Source of the DNA: a phage
Strand: one strand, 5' to 3'
Sequence record: PX309103.1
Length of the DNA stretch: 39,129 nucleotides
Under the pieces are notes generated by a model. The model saw only the letters and a list, made by a program, of their open reading frames with translations. It was not told the origin of the DNA and did not search any database. Shown one piece after another: positions 307-39,129 of this stretch (the first letter of the stretch is position 1; each line of letters begins with the position of its first letter). Made by a program: the position numbers and the translations under genes.

Positions 307-556
307 TTAATAGACACACAGCTATAGACTTAAGGTCAAAGACATGTTAGTCAAAGACTATCCTCTTACACCATGAGGCCGACGATAGCTTAATCGATAT
401 TATTTAAATAACATATTGACTATAGGTCCAGACTATGGCCTAATAGCTTCCGTCAACACGACACGGCAACAACCGGATAGTGAAGACGCCGGGTCATCCC
501 GGTTAAGTAGACAGCCTGATAAGTCATACGAACAACAGGCAGATGACAGAAAGTAG

Positions 557-586: not shown

Positions 587-775
587 GTACCACATCGAAA
601 CAACGGTGATGACCAACACTGAAATGGTCTACCTGAAGTCCTCTGACTGAAGGGAATGCTCTTTAACAATCTGGATAAACTCTTAATGTGCGCCGATAGC
701 GACTAACTACAGGGTCTTTGAGTCTACATCTGAAGGCCCTGACTGATAGTCACTAACAACTGAGAGGATATAACT

Positions 776-1574: not shown

Positions 1575-1655
1575 GGCCTAGCTGAGTGATAGACGAGAGG
1601 TCATCGACTGATAGGTGGCCTCAAAGATTACCACTTAAATTGATAGGAGTTAACT

Positions 1656-2441: not shown

Positions 2442-2464
2442 ACTTAACTATCACTATAGGACTC
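2442..2464 (+). promoter_or_regulatory. Phage RNAP promoter upstream of gene 1 (TTAACTATCACTATAGGACT)
   Basis: Matches the in-genome consensus TAAACTATCACTATAGG found 11 times. Confidence 0.7.
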
Positions 2465-2533
2465 AAGGTCTAAGACTCCAAGTGAAAGACCAAAGAGACT
2501 CTAAGTGAAAGACTAATAACAAGGACTTTAAGT

Positions 2534-5516: not shown

Positions 5517-5541
5517 ACCCTAAACTATCACTATAGGATTA
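5517..5541 (+). promoter_or_regulatory. Phage RNAP promoter (phi1.1-like)
   Basis: TAAACTATCACTATAGGATT. Confidence 0.8.
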
Positions 5542-5546
5542 GACTC

Positions 5547-5573
5547 AAGGTCATGACTCAAAGTCGTGGCCTT
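5547..5573 (+). promoter_or_regulatory. Conserved hairpin, RNase III-site-like (R1.1 position)
   Basis: AAGGUCAUGAC / GUCGUGGCCUU 11-bp stem with G-U pairs and UCAAA loop; one of 3 copies of the same element. Confidence 0.6.
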
Positions 5574-5611
5574 CATGATTAACCCTAACTCATTCAATCA
5601 GGAGCTACACC

Positions 5612-6059: not shown

Positions 6060-7162
6060 TGACAACGACTATCAAAACTAACCCGCACCGCGCTGTAGAT
6101 TACTCTGAGTCTGGCGTTAAGAAAGCACTGGAAGCAGCCGGGTCTCTGGAAGCTGAAGTGAAGTACGATGGTGTGCGCCTGAATCTCCCGGTCTTCCCTA
6201 CTGGTGAGACTCAATGGTTGAGCCGTGAGTCTAAACCTCTCCCAGCGCTTCAGCATCTGAAGTCAGAACATGGTAGTCCTACCGAATTAACAAACTGTGG
6301 AGACTGGCGCTGGTTCCTGAAGCAAGCAGGACATGAGGTCTCTGGCCTAATGATTGATGGCGAGGTGATGGTCAAAGGCGTGGACTTCAACACGTCTTCC
6401 GGTCTTATCCGCACCATGTGGTCTGACCGCAAGAACTACAAGTGGAACATGAACCCTAAGGCAGATATGGAGACCAAGAAGTCTAACAAGGTTCCCTTCC
6501 AGATTAGCCCTGAGTCCCTACGAGTGGTCGTCTACGGGGTCATCGACCTTAACGTCATCAACGACCCAAAAGCCGAAGGTCCTATTCATAGCGTCACACG
6601 CCTGAAGGCCGAAGCTATCGTCCCTCTCCTCCAGAAATACTTCCCGGAAATCGACTGGGTTCTGTCTGAGTCACACACGGTCTATGACCTTGAGTCGCTC
6701 AGCTCCCTGTACGAAGAGAAGCGTCTGGAAGGACACGAGGGTCTGGTAGTCAAGGACCCGCTTGGTAAATACAAGCGTGGCAAGAAGTCTGGCATGTGGA
6801 AAATGAAGCCTGAGGAGACCATAGACGGGACAGTGTGTGGCCTCGTGTGGGGGACTCAGGGTAAGGCGAACGAAGGTAAGGTCATCGGCTTCGAGGTGCT
6901 ACTTGAGGACGGCATGGTGGTTAACACCTGTGGCCTGACTGAAGAACAGAAGGACGAATTCACAGCTAAAGTCGCTGAATCTAGTGGCTATACCTTGGCT
7001 GGTGGCCCTGTGGTTATTCAGGATGGGACCGAGAAGACCAACCCATACGAAGGCTGGCAGTGTGAAGTCCTCTTCATGGAGCGGTTCCCAGATGGCTCAC
7101 TTCGTCACCCTAGCTTCAAGTGCTGGCGTGGAACTGAAGACAATCCGACCATTAAGAGCTAA
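6059..7162 (+). CDS. ATP-dependent DNA ligase (T7 gp1.3 family)
   Basis: Adenylation motif KYDGVR (EVKYDGVRLNL); start placed at ATG 6059 (GGAG 9 nt upstream, TAATG overlap with previous stop) rather than the ORF-track start 6044. Confidence 0.9.
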   Translation: MTTTIKTNPHRAVDYSESGVKKALEAAGSLEAEVKYDGVRLNLPVFPTGETQWLSRESKPLPALQHLKSEHGSPTELTNCGDWRWFLKQAGHEVSGLMIDGEVMVKGVDFNTSSGLIRTMWSDRKNYKWNMNPKADMETKKSNKVPFQISPESLRVVVYGVIDLNVINDPKAEGPIHSVTRLKAEAIVPLLQKYFPEIDWVLSESHTVYDLESLSSLYEEKRLEGHEGLVVKDPLGKYKRGKKSGMWKMKPEETIDGTVCGLVWGTQGKANEGKVIGFEVLLEDGMVVNTCGLTEEQKDEFTAKVAESSGYTLAGGPVVIQDGTEKTNPYEGWQCEVLFMERFPDGSLRHPSFKCWRGTEDNPTIKS

Positions 7163-9401: not shown

Positions 9402-9871
9402 TGACTCAGAAATATAGACTTAAGGTTGACCGCCACGGGTGGCCTAAAGGTGCTATCGTTACGAAATGTGCGAAAGACCCTGTACCATCATCTGGACTTG
9501 TTCTGGTGGAATCCACTGAGCGTGGCACCTACAAACACGGAGCAGCAGGTCATAACACTCAGCCTGACGGTATGTGGGGGGCGTGGGTTTTAAAAGAAAA
9601 TCTTGAGGAAATTGTAGAGGATAAACCTCAAGTCCTGCCAGCCTCAAGTGTCCCTCCTGTCACCGTTAAACGTGAAGTCCTGACCATCGACAAGATTGGT
9701 GTAGGCCAGACGTTCATCGTCCACGGAAAGCCTGAAGAAGTTTACGTGAAGATTAGCAACTCACACGTCTTCAACCATAAGCGTCTCCAGATGCACACCA
9801 CGGACGCACAGCGCTTCACCCAGCACCTGAATCTAGTGGTCGTAGAATTGGTGGTGTACAATGGTAAGTAA
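9398..9871 (+). CDS. Hypothetical protein (157 aa) inserted between endonuclease I and lysozyme
   Basis: ORF overlaps both neighbours (ATGA at start); I recognise no motif. Confidence 0.55.
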   Translation: MMTQKYRLKVDRHGWPKGAIVTKCAKDPVPSSGLVLVESTERGTYKHGAAGHNTQPDGMWGAWVLKENLEEIVEDKPQVLPASSVPPVTVKREVLTIDKIGVGQTFIVHGKPEEVYVKISNSHVFNHKRLQMHTTDAQRFTQHLNLVVVELVVYNGK

Positions 9872-10559: not shown

Positions 10560-10577
10560 ACTATCACCTTAGGGATG
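10555..10577 (+). promoter_or_regulatory. Phage RNAP promoter variant upstream of gene 4
   Basis: TAAACTATCACCTTAGGGAT; two mismatches to the consensus core. Confidence 0.45.
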
Positions 10578-10624
10578 GGACCATGAGTCCTGTCCCTTTG
10601 TCCGCATTATTGACTAAGGAGTGA

Positions 10625-12339: not shown

Positions 12340-12504
12340 TTGCTAAGAAAACTTAAAGCTCGCTACCATCGGTTCATGTACAAATGGTGGAGCGATGAAG
12401 CAACCTGCCTGTCAAGCATTATAGGAGAACAGAGGTTCGACTCTAAGGCATGGAAGAAAGCTAACCGGAAGTTTATGTATCACTTCTTGCGTACAGACTT
12501 CTAG
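12340..12504 (+). CDS. Hypothetical small basic protein (54 aa), TTG start
   Basis: AGGAGG 6 nt upstream of TTG at 12340; the ORF-track 12307 start lies inside gene 4. Confidence 0.4.
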
Positions 12505-12514
12505 GTCTAGACTC

Positions 12515-12539
12515 AAGGTCATTCACATCGAGTGGCCTT
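12515..12539 (+). promoter_or_regulatory. Conserved hairpin, RNase III-site-like (R4.7 position)
   Basis: AAGGUCAUUC / GAGUGGCCUU stem; same flanks (AGACTCAAGGTC ... TTTATGATTAGAC) as the 5547 and 35956 copies. Confidence 0.6.
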
Positions 12540-12567
12540 TATGATTAGACTAAACGGAGGATTAACC

Positions 12568-16965: not shown

Positions 16966-17190
16966 ATGTGTTTCAGTCCGAAGATTAGCACTCCGAAGCC
17001 TTCGGTCCAAGCACCTGAACCAGCACCTCTGAGTGAGGAAGTTGCGTCAGTTGACATCGGGGCTGAATCGGATGTGGACACCAACGAGACCAAAGGTATC
17101 AAAGACCTGAAGGTCAAGAAGGAGTCTGCACCTAAAGATAAATCGTCAGTGAGCCGCGCTATGCGAGCCTCTGGCGTAAACATGGGGTAA
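16966..17190 (+). CDS. gp6.7-like virion protein
   Basis: N-terminus MCFSPKISTPK matches recalled T7 gp6.7. Confidence 0.75.
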   Translation: MCFSPKISTPKPSVQAPEPAPLSEEVASVDIGAESDVDTNETKGIKDLKVKKESAPKDKSSVSRAMRASGVNMG

Positions 17191-17194
17191 GACA

Positions 17195-17599
17195 ATGCTA
17201 CCATATCTCAACTCACGCGAAGGTCGCCACATGTGCGCTTGTCGCCTCTGGGAAGACGGGCAGTCTAACTTCAAGTCATTTGAGGACTTCAAGGCTCATA
17301 CTTACCGTATGGCTGACGAGTTCGATGGTGAAGAGTACACAATCTACGATGTCTCAGGTCAACCAGTAGCGTATCTCTACATGCTGGCTACCGCATCTTG
17401 GCACCGACCAACTCCCGGTCTTGACCTTTCAATCGTCGCTATTCGTCGTGACTCGCAGTCCTCCCGCAAGGTTCTTGAGACTGTCAGGCACATCATAGAC
17501 GAAGAGTGCAAGCGTTGGGGTCTTGGCTGGTATTCTCGTGTCAAGCATGTTTCCGGGTCGGTAGACATCGTAACAACTAAGGAGATTAACCGTGGGTAA
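17195..17599 (+). CDS. gp7-position protein (134 aa), hypothetical
   Basis: ORF in synteny with T7 gene 7. Confidence 0.55.
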   Translation: MLPYLNSREGRHMCACRLWEDGQSNFKSFEDFKAHTYRMADEFDGEEYTIYDVSGQPVAYLYMLATASWHRPTPGLDLSIVAIRRDSQSSRKVLETVRHIIDEECKRWGLGWYSRVKHVSGSVDIVTTKEINRG

Positions 17600-17857: not shown

Positions 17858-19426
17858 ATGGCTGAACGTGAAGGGTTCGCTGCTGAAGGGGCCAAAGCGG
17901 TCTATGACCGACTGAAGAACGGTAGACAGCCATATGAGACACGCGCTCAGAACTGTGCTGCTGTCACTATCCCGTCACTGTTTCCTAAGGAGTCCGACAA
18001 CTCGTCTACTGAGTACACAACTCCGTGGCAAGCTGTAGGTGCTCGCTGTTTGAACAACTTGGCTGCAAAGCTGATGTTGGCATTATTCCCTCAGTCACCG
18101 TGGATGCGACTGACAGTCTCCGAATATGAGGCCAAGACCTTGAGTCAGGACTCAGAGGCTGCTGCTCGTGTTGACGAAGGGCTTGCTATGGTCGAGCGTG
18201 TGTTGATGGCCTACATGGAGACTAACAGTTTCCGTGTGCCATTGTTCGAAGCTCTGAAGCAGCTTATAGTCTCCGGTAACTGTCTGCTCTACATTCCAGA
18301 GCCTGAACAGGGTACTTACAGTCCTATGCGAATGTACCGCTTAGTGTCCTACGTTGTTCAACGTGATGCTTTCGGTAATATCTTGCAGATTGTGACTCTC
18401 GACAAGGTAGCGTTTAGTGCTCTACCGGAAGACGTGAAGTCTCAACTCAACGCAGACGACTATGAGCCTGACACAGAGCTGGAAGTATATACGCACATCT
18501 ACCGTCAAGACGACGAGTATCTGCGCTACGAGGAAGTGGAAGGCATTGAGGTGACAGGGACCGATGGTTCCTACCCGCTGACTGCATGTCCATATATCCC
18601 GGTACGAATGGTTCGACTGGATGGTGAAGACTATGGTCGTTCTTACTGCGAGGAGTATCTGGGAGACCTGAACTCGCTGGAGACGATTACAGAAGCTATC
18701 ACCAAAATGGCTAAGGTAGCCTCCAAGGTGATTGGCCTCGTTAACCCGAACGGCATCACGCAACCTCGACGTCTGAACAAGGCGGCTACAGGTGAGTTCG
18801 TGGCTGGTCGCGTTGATGACATCAGCTTCCTGCAACTGACGAAAGGTCAGGACTTTACGATTGCTAAGTCGGTGGCTGACGCTATCGAGCAACGTTTAGG
18901 TTGGGCCTTCCTTCTTAATAGTGCTGTTCAGCGTAATGCCGAGCGTGTCACTGCTGAAGAGATTCGTTATGTTGCTGGCGAACTGGAGGCGACCTTAGGT
19001 GGCGTGTACTCAGTACAGTCACAAGAGCTTCAGTTACCTATCGTCCGTGTGCTGATGAACCAGCTTCAGTCTGCTGGCATGATTCCTGACCTTCCGAAAG
19101 AAGCGGTAGAGCCTACTGTCTCCACTGGTCTGGAAGCGTTAGGTCGTGGTCAGGACTTGGAGAAGCTAACTCAGGCGGTTAACATGATGACTGGTCTTCA
19201 GCCGCTATCTCAGGACCCGGACATCAACTTGCCGACCCTTAAGCTACGACTCCTGAACGCTCTGGGTATCGACACCGCTGGCCTACTCCTGACGCAAGAC
19301 GAGAAGATTCAGCGCATGGCTGAGCAGTCGTCTCAACAGGCAGTTGTCCAAGGTGCTGGCGCTGCTGGTGCTAACATGGGCGCTGCTGTAGGTCAGGAAG
19401 CTGGTGAGGACATGGCTCAAGCCTAA
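17858..19426 (+). CDS. Head-to-tail connector (portal) protein (gp8 family)
   Basis: 522 aa; extensive T7 gp8 similarity (PYETRAQNCA, YRLVSYVVQRDAFGN, RMVRLDGEDYGRSY). Confidence 0.96.
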   Translation: MAEREGFAAEGAKAVYDRLKNGRQPYETRAQNCAAVTIPSLFPKESDNSSTEYTTPWQAVGARCLNNLAAKLMLALFPQSPWMRLTVSEYEAKTLSQDSEAAARVDEGLAMVERVLMAYMETNSFRVPLFEALKQLIVSGNCLLYIPEPEQGTYSPMRMYRLVSYVVQRDAFGNILQIVTLDKVAFSALPEDVKSQLNADDYEPDTELEVYTHIYRQDDEYLRYEEVEGIEVTGTDGSYPLTACPYIPVRMVRLDGEDYGRSYCEEYLGDLNSLETITEAITKMAKVASKVIGLVNPNGITQPRRLNKAATGEFVAGRVDDISFLQLTKGQDFTIAKSVADAIEQRLGWAFLLNSAVQRNAERVTAEEIRYVAGELEATLGGVYSVQSQELQLPIVRVLMNQLQSAGMIPDLPKEAVEPTVSTGLEALGRGQDLEKLTQAVNMMTGLQPLSQDPDINLPTLKLRLLNALGIDTAGLLLTQDEKIQRMAEQSSQQAVVQGAGAAGANMGAAVGQEAGEDMAQA

Positions 19427-19523: not shown

Positions 19524-20408
19524 ATGTCTCAATCAGTTTATGCCGAGTTCGGCGTTAGCTCTAATGCAATCACTGGTTCCGTTGAGGACCTGAACGAACA
19601 CCAGAAGTCTATGCTTGAACAGGACGTAGCTGTTCGTGATGGCGATGACGCTATTACCTTCAAGCAACTGGAAGCCGAAAACGAAGAGGCGACCGAAGAA
19701 GACGAGAACGTCGAAGAGGCTGAAGGTGAAGAAGACCACGAGTCCGATGACGAAGAGTCTGAGACCGATGGTGAGCAGCCTGAGTTCATCGAACTTGGTG
19801 ATGCACCAAAAGAGCTGACCGAAAGTGTCACCTATCTGGATGAAAACGAAGCTGCATTTGACGACATGGTGTCTTCTGCTGTAGAAGCTGGCAAGGTCAC
19901 TGCTGATGAAATTACCGCTATCAAGGCTGAATACGCCAAGGACGGTAAGCTGTCTGACGCATCCTACGCTAAGTTGCAGGAAGCAGGTTACACCAAGCGT
20001 TTCGTAGATTCGTTTGTCCGTGGTCAGGAAGCTCTGGCTGAACAGTATGCTGCTGGTGTGGTTCGCTACGCTGGTGGTGCTGAACAGTTTAATCGCATCC
20101 TGTCACACCTTGAGTCCAACGACCCGTCAACTCGTGAAGCACTGGAAGCTGCTATCATTCGTAAGGACATTGCGACTACCAAAGCTCTGCTGAATCTGGC
20201 TGGCAAGACTCTGGGTAAAGCTGTGGGTGTTAAACCTCAGCGTACCATCACCACTCAGGCTAAACCTGTGGTCGCACCTAAGGCTCCTCAGACCGAAGCA
20301 TTCAGCTCCAAGGCTGACATGATTAAGGCTATGAGTGACCCGCGATACCTGCGTGACGCTAAGTACACGATGGAAGTTCGCGCTAAGGTAGCTGCCTCAA
20401 GCCTGTAG
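19524..20408 (+). CDS. Capsid assembly (scaffolding) protein (gp9 family)
   Basis: Acidic protein; AKLQEAGYTKRFVDSFVRGQEAL and MIKAMSDPRY match T7 gp9; start ATG 19524 with AAGGAGA RBS. Confidence 0.9.
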   Translation: MSQSVYAEFGVSSNAITGSVEDLNEHQKSMLEQDVAVRDGDDAITFKQLEAENEEATEEDENVEEAEGEEDHESDDEESETDGEQPEFIELGDAPKELTESVTYLDENEAAFDDMVSSAVEAGKVTADEITAIKAEYAKDGKLSDASYAKLQEAGYTKRFVDSFVRGQEALAEQYAAGVVRYAGGAEQFNRILSHLESNDPSTREALEAAIIRKDIATTKALLNLAGKTLGKAVGVKPQRTITTQAKPVVAPKAPQTEAFSSKADMIKAMSDPRYLRDAKYTMEVRAKVAASSL

Positions 20409-20410
20409 GA

Positions 20411-20433
20411 CTAAACTATCACTATAGGGAGAC
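20411..20433 (+). promoter_or_regulatory. Phage RNAP promoter (phi10-like)
   Basis: TAAACTATCACTATAGGGAGACC, followed by a GGGAGACC...GGUUCCC 5' stem-loop. Confidence 0.9.
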
Positions 20434-20533
20434 CAAGAGAAAGACTCAAGGTTCCCTATTACTTCAGTCCATACGGATTGGGCGTACAGTAAGTAATAAA
20501 CTTTATCCTTCAATTGAATAGGAGAATTATCAT

Positions 20534-35684: not shown

Positions 35685-35944
35685 CGCAGATGGACTTAGA
35701 GAAGTTCCTCTTGATGCTTGATACTGAGCGTGCTCGACTTATGCTGCAAGACTTGCGGGATGACACTAAGCGTTCACCTCAGCTCTATAACGCCATTGAG
35801 AAGCTGCTTGCTCGTCACAACTTTGTGTTAAGTAAGGTGTCTATGGACGAGAAGACGCTGGCTGATATGGAGGCCCTGAACGCAGAGTACGATAAGGTGC
35901 TTTCAGCGACTGAGGATAATGACACAGGGTATGGTGTTCAATAA
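35681..35944 (+). CDS. Terminase small subunit / DNA maturation protein A (gp18 family)
   Basis: RSPQLYNAIEKLLARH matches T7 gp18. Confidence 0.88.
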   Translation: MTQMDLEKFLLMLDTERARLMLQDLRDDTKRSPQLYNAIEKLLARHNFVLSKVSMDEKTLADMEALNAEYDKVLSATEDNDTGYGVQ

Positions 35945-35955
35945 GTGTTAGACTC

Positions 35956-35982
35956 AAGGTCATTACTATATGTAGTGGCCTT
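35956..35982 (+). promoter_or_regulatory. Conserved hairpin, RNase III-site-like (R18.5 position)
   Basis: AAGGUCAUUAC / GUAGUGGCCUU stem with UAUAU loop; third copy of the conserved element. Confidence 0.6.
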
Positions 35983-36045
35983 TATGGTTAACACTAACTA
36001 GTGGAGGCGACTCTACGTGAAATCTGATAAACCGGGAGGGCAACT

Positions 36046-38710: not shown

Positions 38711-38743
38711 CGCAATCATGGTAACGATTCATGAGAGGAAGAC

Positions 38744-38786
38744 CTAAGGTCAGTACGTGGATAAAGACTCACTGTACTGACCTTAG
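38744..38786 (+). promoter_or_regulatory. Perfect 13-bp inverted repeat hairpin downstream of gene 19.5
   Basis: CTAAGGTCAGTAC (38744-38756), 17-nt loop, GTACTGACCTTAG (38774-38786); shares the AAGGUCA 5' arm with the other hairpins. Confidence 0.6.
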
Positions 38787-38871
38787 CTACTGTAGTCAAG
38801 GACTTTAGGTAACACCTTAATAGAAGCTCACTTAGGGTCATCCTACTTATTGGTCCATCCTAGTGTCGCCT

Positions 38872-38910
38872 GACCTACGGTCCTTGACCTACAGTGGCTG
38901 TGACCTACAG
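38872..38910. repeat. Array of 3 GACCTAC(A/G)G repeats just inside the right terminal repeat
   Basis: Copies at 38872, 38886 and 38902; counterpart of the left-end CCTACAG array. Confidence 0.6.
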
Positions 38911-38949
38911 TAGTGACGATGAGTTTTGGACCAAAAGTTTGAGACCACA

Positions 38950-39129
38950 TCTCACAGTTCAAGAACCTCAAGTCTCCCCATAGGCCCTCTTTAAGTCCAG
39001 ACCAAAGGCCCTACCCCCAGTCTATCATAAGGTTGGACCGATGGTCAAGACTTCAGGTCGACGATAGGTCTAGGCTATGGCTGGAGGTTAGACGATAGGT
39101 AGGGGCTATAGGTCTGTCTCTGTGTCTCT
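38950..39129. repeat. Right direct terminal repeat (180 bp), identical to 1-180
   Basis: Read directly from sequence. Confidence 0.95.

Follow-up and report, generated by a model that had tools for sequence, protein, structure and literature searches.

A 12-nucleotide motif that recurs in the leaders and intergenic spacers of a K1F-like phage genome is very probably the sequence-invariant core of the RNase III processing signal of the T7 group, with variants of the same word embedded in other promoter-associated hairpins. The evidence for this reading comes from sequence and structure, from covariation and synteny, and from homology to sites annotated in T7 and T3; RNase III cleavage of the predicted sites, together with the exact cut positions, would follow by analogy with those phages, and whatever function the two non-canonical hairpins that hold the variants (2448-2511 and 20427-20456) may have is likewise putative. 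The motif, so identified, belongs to a kind of element that is already known, the core of a classical T7-group processing signal. The one mildly new item is a predicted hairpin before the RNA polymerase gene that contains a promoter, and no other lead here merits experimental work.

Recurrence of the motif in the genome

The stretch of DNA analyzed here (the window, 39,129 nt) is the complete genome of a K1F-like (Kayfunavirus) phage of the T7 group. Its gene order is that of T7, Kayfunavirus podophages match its first 8 kb at 90-98% identity, and its terminal direct repeats are exact over 180 bp (positions 1-180 are the same as 38950-39129), which indicates a linear genome present in full. 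About 89% of the genome is coding and about 11% non-coding, and the phage promoter AACTATCACTATAGG has 11 matches, on the + strand. The public records of relatives that we examined carry annotated promoters and terminators, with RNase III sites left unannotated.

Within this genome the 10-mer GACTCAAGGT occurs five times on the + strand (at 2460, 5542, 12510, 20443 and 35951) and three times on the - strand (at 6687, 18137 and 20107). Set against these eight copies are 0.25 expected, and eight or more were found in none of 100 dinucleotide shuffles, the maximum being 2; an order-3 Markov model (300 simulations, evaluated per strand) predicts 0.17 copies on the + strand and 0.09 on the - strand, and its per-strand maximum of 2 compares with the five observed on the + strand. 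Extended to 12 nucleotides, the word AGACTCAAGGTC is exact at 5541, 12509 and 35950, and the remaining two + strand copies are one-off variants, GGACTCAAGGTC at 2459, which begins with G, and AGACTCAAGGTT at 20442, which has T at its end. All five + strand copies are intergenic. A promoter match lies upstream of three of them (2446-2460, 5523-5537 and 20414-20428), and the copies at 12509 and 35950 have none directly upstream. These counts bear out an earlier note on this DNA, which had held that the motif recurs beyond chance and that it does so in leaders and intergenic spacers. The five + strand copies that it listed are correct, but the three on the - strand were missed, and its coordinates mixed 10-mer with 12-mer starts, an error of at most one position (the near copy AGACTTAAGGTC at the left end lies at 326-337, not 327-338).

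Chance or compositional bias is scarcely credible as the source of this recurrence. The genome does hold 148 10-mer words with at least three copies, and its coding repeats exceed a codon-aware null; against chance stand the shuffle and Markov results, the position of all five + strand copies in the non-coding 11% or so of the genome, and the matching, covarying 3' arm that accompanies three of them. Chance is refuted where the + strand copies are concerned, and it is the likeliest reading of the three on the - strand.

The minus-strand copies lie within coding sequence (Table 1) and span two different reading frames. Synonymous-codon shuffles expect 0.10 such coding copies, compared with the three observed, and relatives hold three to five minus-strand copies, partly at other places. 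This excess would favor a reading in which the motif is an autonomous linear RNA or DNA element independent of any hairpin, either a protein-binding site or a signal within the initially transcribed sequence, that is embedded in the three RNase III hairpins and stands alone at 2459, at 20442 and possibly on the - strand. In addition, the word has the form of a small palindrome, GAC-N5-GTC, and matches to the quasi-palindromic family GACYNNNGGTC are in excess on each strand, numbering 21 and 16 where about 3 would be expected. We nevertheless regard such an element as improbable. Coding 10-mers with at least three copies number 107 in the genome and about 30 in synonymous-codon shuffles (3.5-fold), so repeated coding words are underpredicted in general, the synonymous null is too strict genome-wide and the minus-strand excess is weak evidence; with its strong codon-context bias, this is a genome in which simple nulls for repeated words are too strict. 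The antisense copies also vary or vanish in diverged relatives, as in the scaffold gene (gene 9), where the copy changes freely, to GAGGCG in SH4 and to CTGGAG in Kc166A. Finally, the copies share no common context, and many members of the GACYNNNGGTC family fall in the terminal repeats and end regions. The minus-strand copies look compositional, with a small residue unexplained.

Several further observations concern these word families. Examples of the repeated coding 10-mers are GCTGCTGGTG (6 copies), GACCTGAAGG (4) and GACTCAGGGT (4). Many of the GACYNNNGGTC matches, exemplified by GACTTCAGGTC, GACCGATGGTC, GACGATAGGTC and GACCTAAGGTC, lie at 87-152, 326-430 and 38741-39100, with others scattered. 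The near copy AGACTTAAGGTC is a member of this broad family, whose matches concentrate at the genome ends; it has no covariance-model match and is not an RNase III-type site. Long-range pairing between the complement of 20107-20116 and the gene-10 leader copy was considered and rejected, given that CR44b, SH4, Eclo03 and Kc166A each change one partner without compensation.

Table 1. Predicted hairpins of the window, the left-end near copy and the minus-strand copies of the motif (CM, covariance model; z, fold relative to shuffles).
Feature	Position	Strand	Location and motif	Fold and CM values	Predicted cleavage
Near copy AGACTTAAGGTC	326-337	+	Left-end repeat region, upstream of early promoters	z -1.78
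R0.3-like diverged hairpin	698-756	+	Directly upstream of gene 0.3; no exact motif	CM 25.8 bits; z -3.97
R0.5-like diverged hairpin	1585-1637	+	Early region; core GACGAGAGGUC	CM 33.3 bits, E 1.3e-5; z -3.54
Promoter-containing hairpin	2448-2511	+	Gene-1 leader; imperfect, ~19 bp	MFE -17.2 kcal/mol; z -1.97
R1.1 counterpart hairpin	5535-5588	+	Motif 5541-5552; aligns with T7 R1.1 and T3 R1.1	CM 58.7 bits; MFE -20.2 kcal/mol; z -3.82	Between 5576 and 5577, by T7 R1.1 alignment
Minus-strand copy	6686-6697	-	Ligase gene; sense GAC CTT GAG TCG = D-L-E-S
R4.7 counterpart hairpin	12503-12554	+	Motif 12509-12520; upstream of DNA polymerase gene	CM 61.8 bits; z -3.16	Between 12542 and 12543, by alignment with T7 coordinates
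Minus-strand copy	18136-18147	-	Portal gene; sense ACC TTG AGT CAG = T-L-S-Q
Minus-strand copy	20106-20117	-	Scaffold gene; sense CAC CTT GAG TCC = H-L-E-S; 336 nt upstream of the gene-10 (phi10) leader copy
Gene-10 (phi10) transcript 5'-terminal stem-loop	20427-20456	+	Gene-10 leader; stem extended to 20424-20459 on read-through RNA	z -2.79
R18.5 counterpart hairpin	35944-35997	+	Motif 35950-35961; spacer between genes 18 and 18.5	CM 63.4 bits; z -3.18	Between 35985 and 35986, by alignment with T7 coordinates

Hairpins of the RNase III type

The three exact copies form the 5' halves of hairpins (z -3.2 to -3.8) that align column by column with T7 R0.5, R1.1, R4.7, R0.3, R18.5 and R1.3, and also with the stem_loop features of the T3 record, which are annotated RNase III recognition sites. 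The 12-mer itself is identical in T7 R0.5, and the conserved core of the alignment (six T7 and seven T3 sites), ACUCAAGGUC ... GUGGCCUU(U/C)AUGAUU, is present in all three. The consensus structure consists of a 7-bp lower stem, an internal loop in which ACUC lies opposite UAUGA, and a 10-bp upper stem. Compensatory changes are seen in 10 of the 17 consensus pairs, and 93.4% of the cells that should pair do so, compared with 75.9% in column shuffles (none of 500 as high) and 31-50% in slid registers. A covariance model (CM) trained on 16 sites from T7, T3 and the window, three genera in all, scores the exact-copy sites at 58.7-63.4 bits, with every match on the + strand, and recovers the held-out T7 R1, T7 R6.5 and T3 R6.5 sites at 42-45 bits.

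The placement of these hairpins is syntenic: one lies after gene 1 and phi1.1, with its start close to +1 of the promoter at 5523-5537, one before the DNA polymerase gene, and one between genes 18 and 18.5. Among IMG/VR sequences, more than 120 stretches, mostly on contigs of 38-44 kb, have TGGCCTT downstream of the motif at hairpin distance. An Rfam scan of the whole window returned no family at the gathering threshold; as Rfam holds no matching family, the sites are classified by our own CM and by homology to T7 and T3. A literature search combining K1F with RNase III found nothing relevant.

Inspection of the aligned sites assigns a distinct part to each segment of AGACUCAAGGUC. The AG forms the top of the lower stem, which it closes, and it covaries; ACUC makes up the 5' strand of the internal loop and stays unpaired; and AAGGUC joins GGCCUU in the basal part of the upper stem through six pairs, a U-G wobble included, that are nearly invariant across the 16 sites and three genera, in contrast to the covarying lower and apical stems. 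Because ACUC and AAGGUC remain invariant while the other stems covary, their conservation does not come from base pairing alone, and it fits the constraints of RNase III recognition and cleavage pattern. In T7 R1.1, base pairs of the proximal and distal boxes are recognition determinants for E. coli RNase III, and internal loops confine cleavage to one strand, which yields protective 3' hairpins (PMC1540722, PMC3867540). The earlier note had seen the three hairpins without recognizing in them the classical T7-group processing signals; of the role of its own that it proposed for the motif, conservation of primary sequence beyond pairing at the canonical sites stands, and a hairpin-free role finds little support.

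By analogy with T7, polycistronic phage RNA would fold at each canonical site into two stems, lower and upper, with an asymmetric internal loop between them, and host RNase III would bind the helix and confine its cut to the loop's 3' strand (CCUU(U/C)AU^GAUU). Such a single-strand cut on the 3' side of the loop has its basis in T7 (PMC1540722, PMC3867540, PMC6938266), where RNase III cuts the polycistronic RNAs at ten sites and promoters commonly adjoin cleavage sites (PMC6938266). The cut would separate mRNAs, the upstream one keeping a protective 3' hairpin. On this scheme three sites carry the exact 12-mer (R1.1-, R4.7- and R18.5-like), two early sites are diverged, the copy at 20442 supplies the loop and 3' arm of the stem-loop at the 5' end of the gene-10 transcript, and the copy at 2459 is the start of the gene-1 promoter transcript, within a predicted promoter-containing hairpin that could form only on read-through RNA. 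The T7 cleavage coordinates behind the predicted cuts in Table 1, which we take to be those of Dunn and Studier (1983), each fall within a CM match, an indirect check.

The two diverged early hairpins lack the exact motif, and the one at 1585-1637 has counterparts in K1F, EcoDS1, CR44b and Ro45lw. Another hairpin, of 11 bp (GGGAUGGGAC/GUCCUGUCCC, z -3.0), occupies positions 10572-10605 in the leader before the primase/helicase gene and is followed by CCCTTTGTCCGC, which is close to the T7 R3.8 sequence (...GGTTTCCCTTT^GTTCGC); the hairpin is a probable R3.8 counterpart that lacks the motif. A near copy at 9416-9450, AGACTTAAGGTT, is followed 13 nt on by GTGGCCT and lies in coding sequence at the junction of genes 3 and 3.x. 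It was rejected as an RNase III site, the likeness being superficial (fold z 0.21 relative to shuffles, no CM match). In Ro45lw, a promoter-like sequence, AACTATCACTGTAGG, stands at 12449-12463, immediately before the gene-5 RNase III site, and is absent at the counterpart in the window, which indicates that modules of promoter plus RNase III site are gained and lost among close relatives.

Motif copies in the gene-10 and gene-1 leaders

The copies at 20442 and 2459 had been taken to lie outside any hairpin. Both prove to fall within predicted hairpins, the former in a stem-loop at the 5' end of the gene-10 transcript and the latter in a hairpin that includes a promoter core, which argues against an autonomous element that would stand alone at these two places. 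Neither copy gives a CM match (E up to 10, filters off), and the canonical 3' arm GUGGCCUU is absent at both.

At the major capsid gene, the transcript starts with GGGAGACC at +1, paired to GGUUCCC, in a stem-loop laid out as GGGAGACC-AA-GAG...CUC-AA-GGUUCCC, in which an inner GAG/CUC helix is set off by an AA/AA internal loop. The motif copy (20442-20453) begins 16 nt downstream of the +1 of the promoter before this gene and makes up the loop and 3' arm of the structure. The stem is kept in all nine Kayfunavirus genomes compared, the window included, and in T7; in Kc166A (GGGAGAACG.../...CGUCUCCC) and in ECLMC06 the 3' arm changes along with the 5' arm. The word itself is not conserved here, reading GACTCAATGT in K1F, GACTAAAGGT in CR44b and GAACTAAATG in Kc166A, and its variation (AATG in K1F, GACTAAAGG in CR44b, GAACTAAATGCG in Kc166A) tracks the pairing partner, contrary to what an autonomous element would require. 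The copy at 20442 is explained by the hairpin, as its 3' arm.

The copy at 2459-2470 coincides with positions +1 to +12 of the phage promoter at 2446-2460, which precedes the RNA polymerase gene (gene 1, starting at 2534). A promoter directly before gene 1 is annotated in EcoDS1 and CR44b as well, and a consensus phage promoter directly upstream of the polymerase gene implies autogenous transcription. The 12-mer GGACTCAAGGTC is identical at this place in 10 of 11 relatives, and the next 50 nt occur in lineage-specific versions. This constancy, maintained while the downstream leader differs by lineage, is what a sequence-specific role would also predict, and it is the point at which an autonomous element draws most directly on the + strand copies; a hairpin-free role is possible for the copy at 2459 alone, and nothing requires it.

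Folding of the gene-1 leader as initiated at the promoter reveals no more structure than is found in shuffles (z 0.02 and 0.06). The hairpin predicted at 2448-2511 reaches further upstream: its 5' arm comprises the promoter core and the motif copy, its 3' arm reads AGACC...GAGACUCUAAGUGA, and its pairs include UCACU/AGUGA, UAGG/CUCUA, CUC/GAG and GGUCU/AGACC. Because this hairpin includes the promoter core, the whole structure can exist on read-through RNA only. Its thermodynamic support within the window is moderate, and among the window's 11 promoters the probability that the core pairs with the leader is highest at the gene-1 promoter (0.74). The same architecture is predicted in 10 of 11 relatives, EcpYZU01 keeping a short hairpin only. 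In a second lineage (lineage 2, with Ro45lw, IMM-002, ST57 and others), the stem is a perfect 11-bp helix, UAUCACUAAAG/CUUUAGUGAUA (z -2.79), and three differences from the first lineage each improve the gene-1 helix. The T>A change at -2 in lineage 2 is found in the gene-1 promoter alone among the 11 promoters of Ro45lw. The 3' arms cannot be aligned between the lineages, so the comparison yields no formal covariation count.

From these features we read the copy at 2459 as the 5' arm of a predicted promoter hairpin that would be confined to read-through RNA and may be a substitute for R1. It is possible, though we would not call it probable, that 2448-2511 is a previously undescribed regulatory hairpin at which RNase III cuts or binds read-through RNA in place of R1, and from which promoter-initiated transcripts escape. 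If this were true, polymerase mRNAs made by host-polymerase read-through and those made from the phage promoter would meet different fates, and lineage 2 would have altered its promoter at -2 to perfect the helix.

The leader also has a repetitive texture. Two copies of GACTC(C/T)AAGTGAAAGAC lie at 2474-2490 and 2497-2513, GAC recurs about every 9-14 nt, mostly 13-14, and a similar 13-mer, GACTCTACGTGAA, is found in the gene 18.5 leader at about 36008-36020. A tandem-repeat reading of this GACT-periodic leader was rejected: TRF reported none, and the repeats amount to the two 17-mers.

The copies at 2459 and 20442 could alternatively be relics, half-sites of canonical RNase III signals without present function, derived for example from an ancestral R1 before gene 1 or from a second copy of a promoter-plus-R1.1 module whose 3' arm has been lost. 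T7 and T3 carry R1 at exactly this position before gene 1, modules that couple a promoter with an RNase III site are common (phi1.1/R1.1 in the window, phi1.1/R1.1 and phi1.3/R1.3 in T3, the gene-5 site in Ro45lw), and the gene-1 leader shares 22 of 24 aligned positions, the motif included, with the R1.1 site. Outside the motif, however, the similarity to the phi1.1-R1.1 module is not significant (p 0.135), and none of 20 IMG/VR Kayfunavirus contigs and no GenBank relative has a canonical 3' arm still intact upstream of gene 1. The 12-mer at 2459 is, moreover, strictly conserved, and lineage 2 shows compensatory-looking changes; both argue for present constraint, and we consider relics unlikely. 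As an origin story, a relic is compatible with the motif as the core of an RNase III signal.

RNAalifold proposed a different partner for the gene-1 copy, with nine of ten pairs formed: the sequence GACUUUAAGU before the gene-1 AUG, in a helix joining the 5' end to the ribosome-binding site (RBS) that would hold down polymerase translation from transcripts of the phage promoter. The two partners do not vary, the 60 nt between them differ by lineage, and the pair probability reaches 0.7-0.87 in lineage 2. In the lineage of the window (W, K1F, L017, L029), by contrast, this probability is about 0 to 0.01; the helix shows no covariation, EcpYZU01 breaking two pairs and improving one; and the whole leader is, as noted above, no more structured than shuffles. 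We think it very unlikely that such a helix accounts for the copy, and the hairpin on read-through RNA remains our preferred placement of it.

Comparison with T7 and T3

For annotation, the value of this analysis is that it gives positions in a K1F-like phage for five predicted RNase III processing signals. It also separates the parts of the signal that stay the same in T7, T3 and Kayfunavirus (ACUC and AAGGUC/GGCCUU) from the remainder, which merely covaries. The predicted promoter-containing hairpin of gene 1 is the only item with some research value, in that it could set host-made polymerase mRNA apart from the phage-made. Because K1F-type polymerases and promoters serve synthetic biology, native leader elements of this kind are of some practical interest.

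The sites used for comparison were R0.5, R1.1, R4.7, R0.3 and R18.5 of T7, reportedly among the RNase III sites that Dunn and Studier described in 1983, and those annotated for T3 in NC_003298. The signals of the window share with them the lower stem, the ACUC/UAUGA internal loop, the AAGGUC/GGCCUU upper stem, the core and the strand, and they share their synteny as well, after gene 1, before gene 5 and in the spacer between genes 18 and 18.5. They differ in the sequences of loop and lower stem and in number, the five predicted sites of the window comparing with ten in T7; by CM search the window has no canonical R1, R1.3 or R6.5, in which T7 and T3 differ from it.

The stem-loop at 20427-20456 has its counterparts in the T7 phi10 leader stem-loop (GGGAGACCACAACGGUUUCCC) and in the nearly identical T7 R3.8 hairpin. 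Like that of T7 phi10, the stem of the window pairs GGGAGACC, starting at +1, with GGUU(U)CCC and lies directly before the major capsid gene; unlike it, the loop is enlarged by the inner GAG/CUC helix with its AA/AA internal loop, and as a result of this enlargement the 3' arm happens to read GACUCAAGGUU. The motif is thus a 3' arm in the phi10 leader of the window, whereas it is a 5' arm at the canonical sites.

The hairpin predicted at 2448-2511, with the promoter core inside it, recalls R3.8, R6.5 and R13 of T7 and T3, in which a promoter lies inside an RNase III hairpin that forms on read-through RNA only: T3 R6.5 (17135-17206) encloses phi6.5 (17160-17182), and the 5' arm of T7 R6.5 likewise reads AAACTCAAGGTCCC. 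Unlike hairpins of that type, 2448-2511 has an imperfect helix and lacks both the canonical 3' arm and a CM match. Before the polymerase gene itself the phages differ in kind, T7 and T3 having a canonical R1 and no phage promoter, and the window a phage promoter together with a predicted hairpin.
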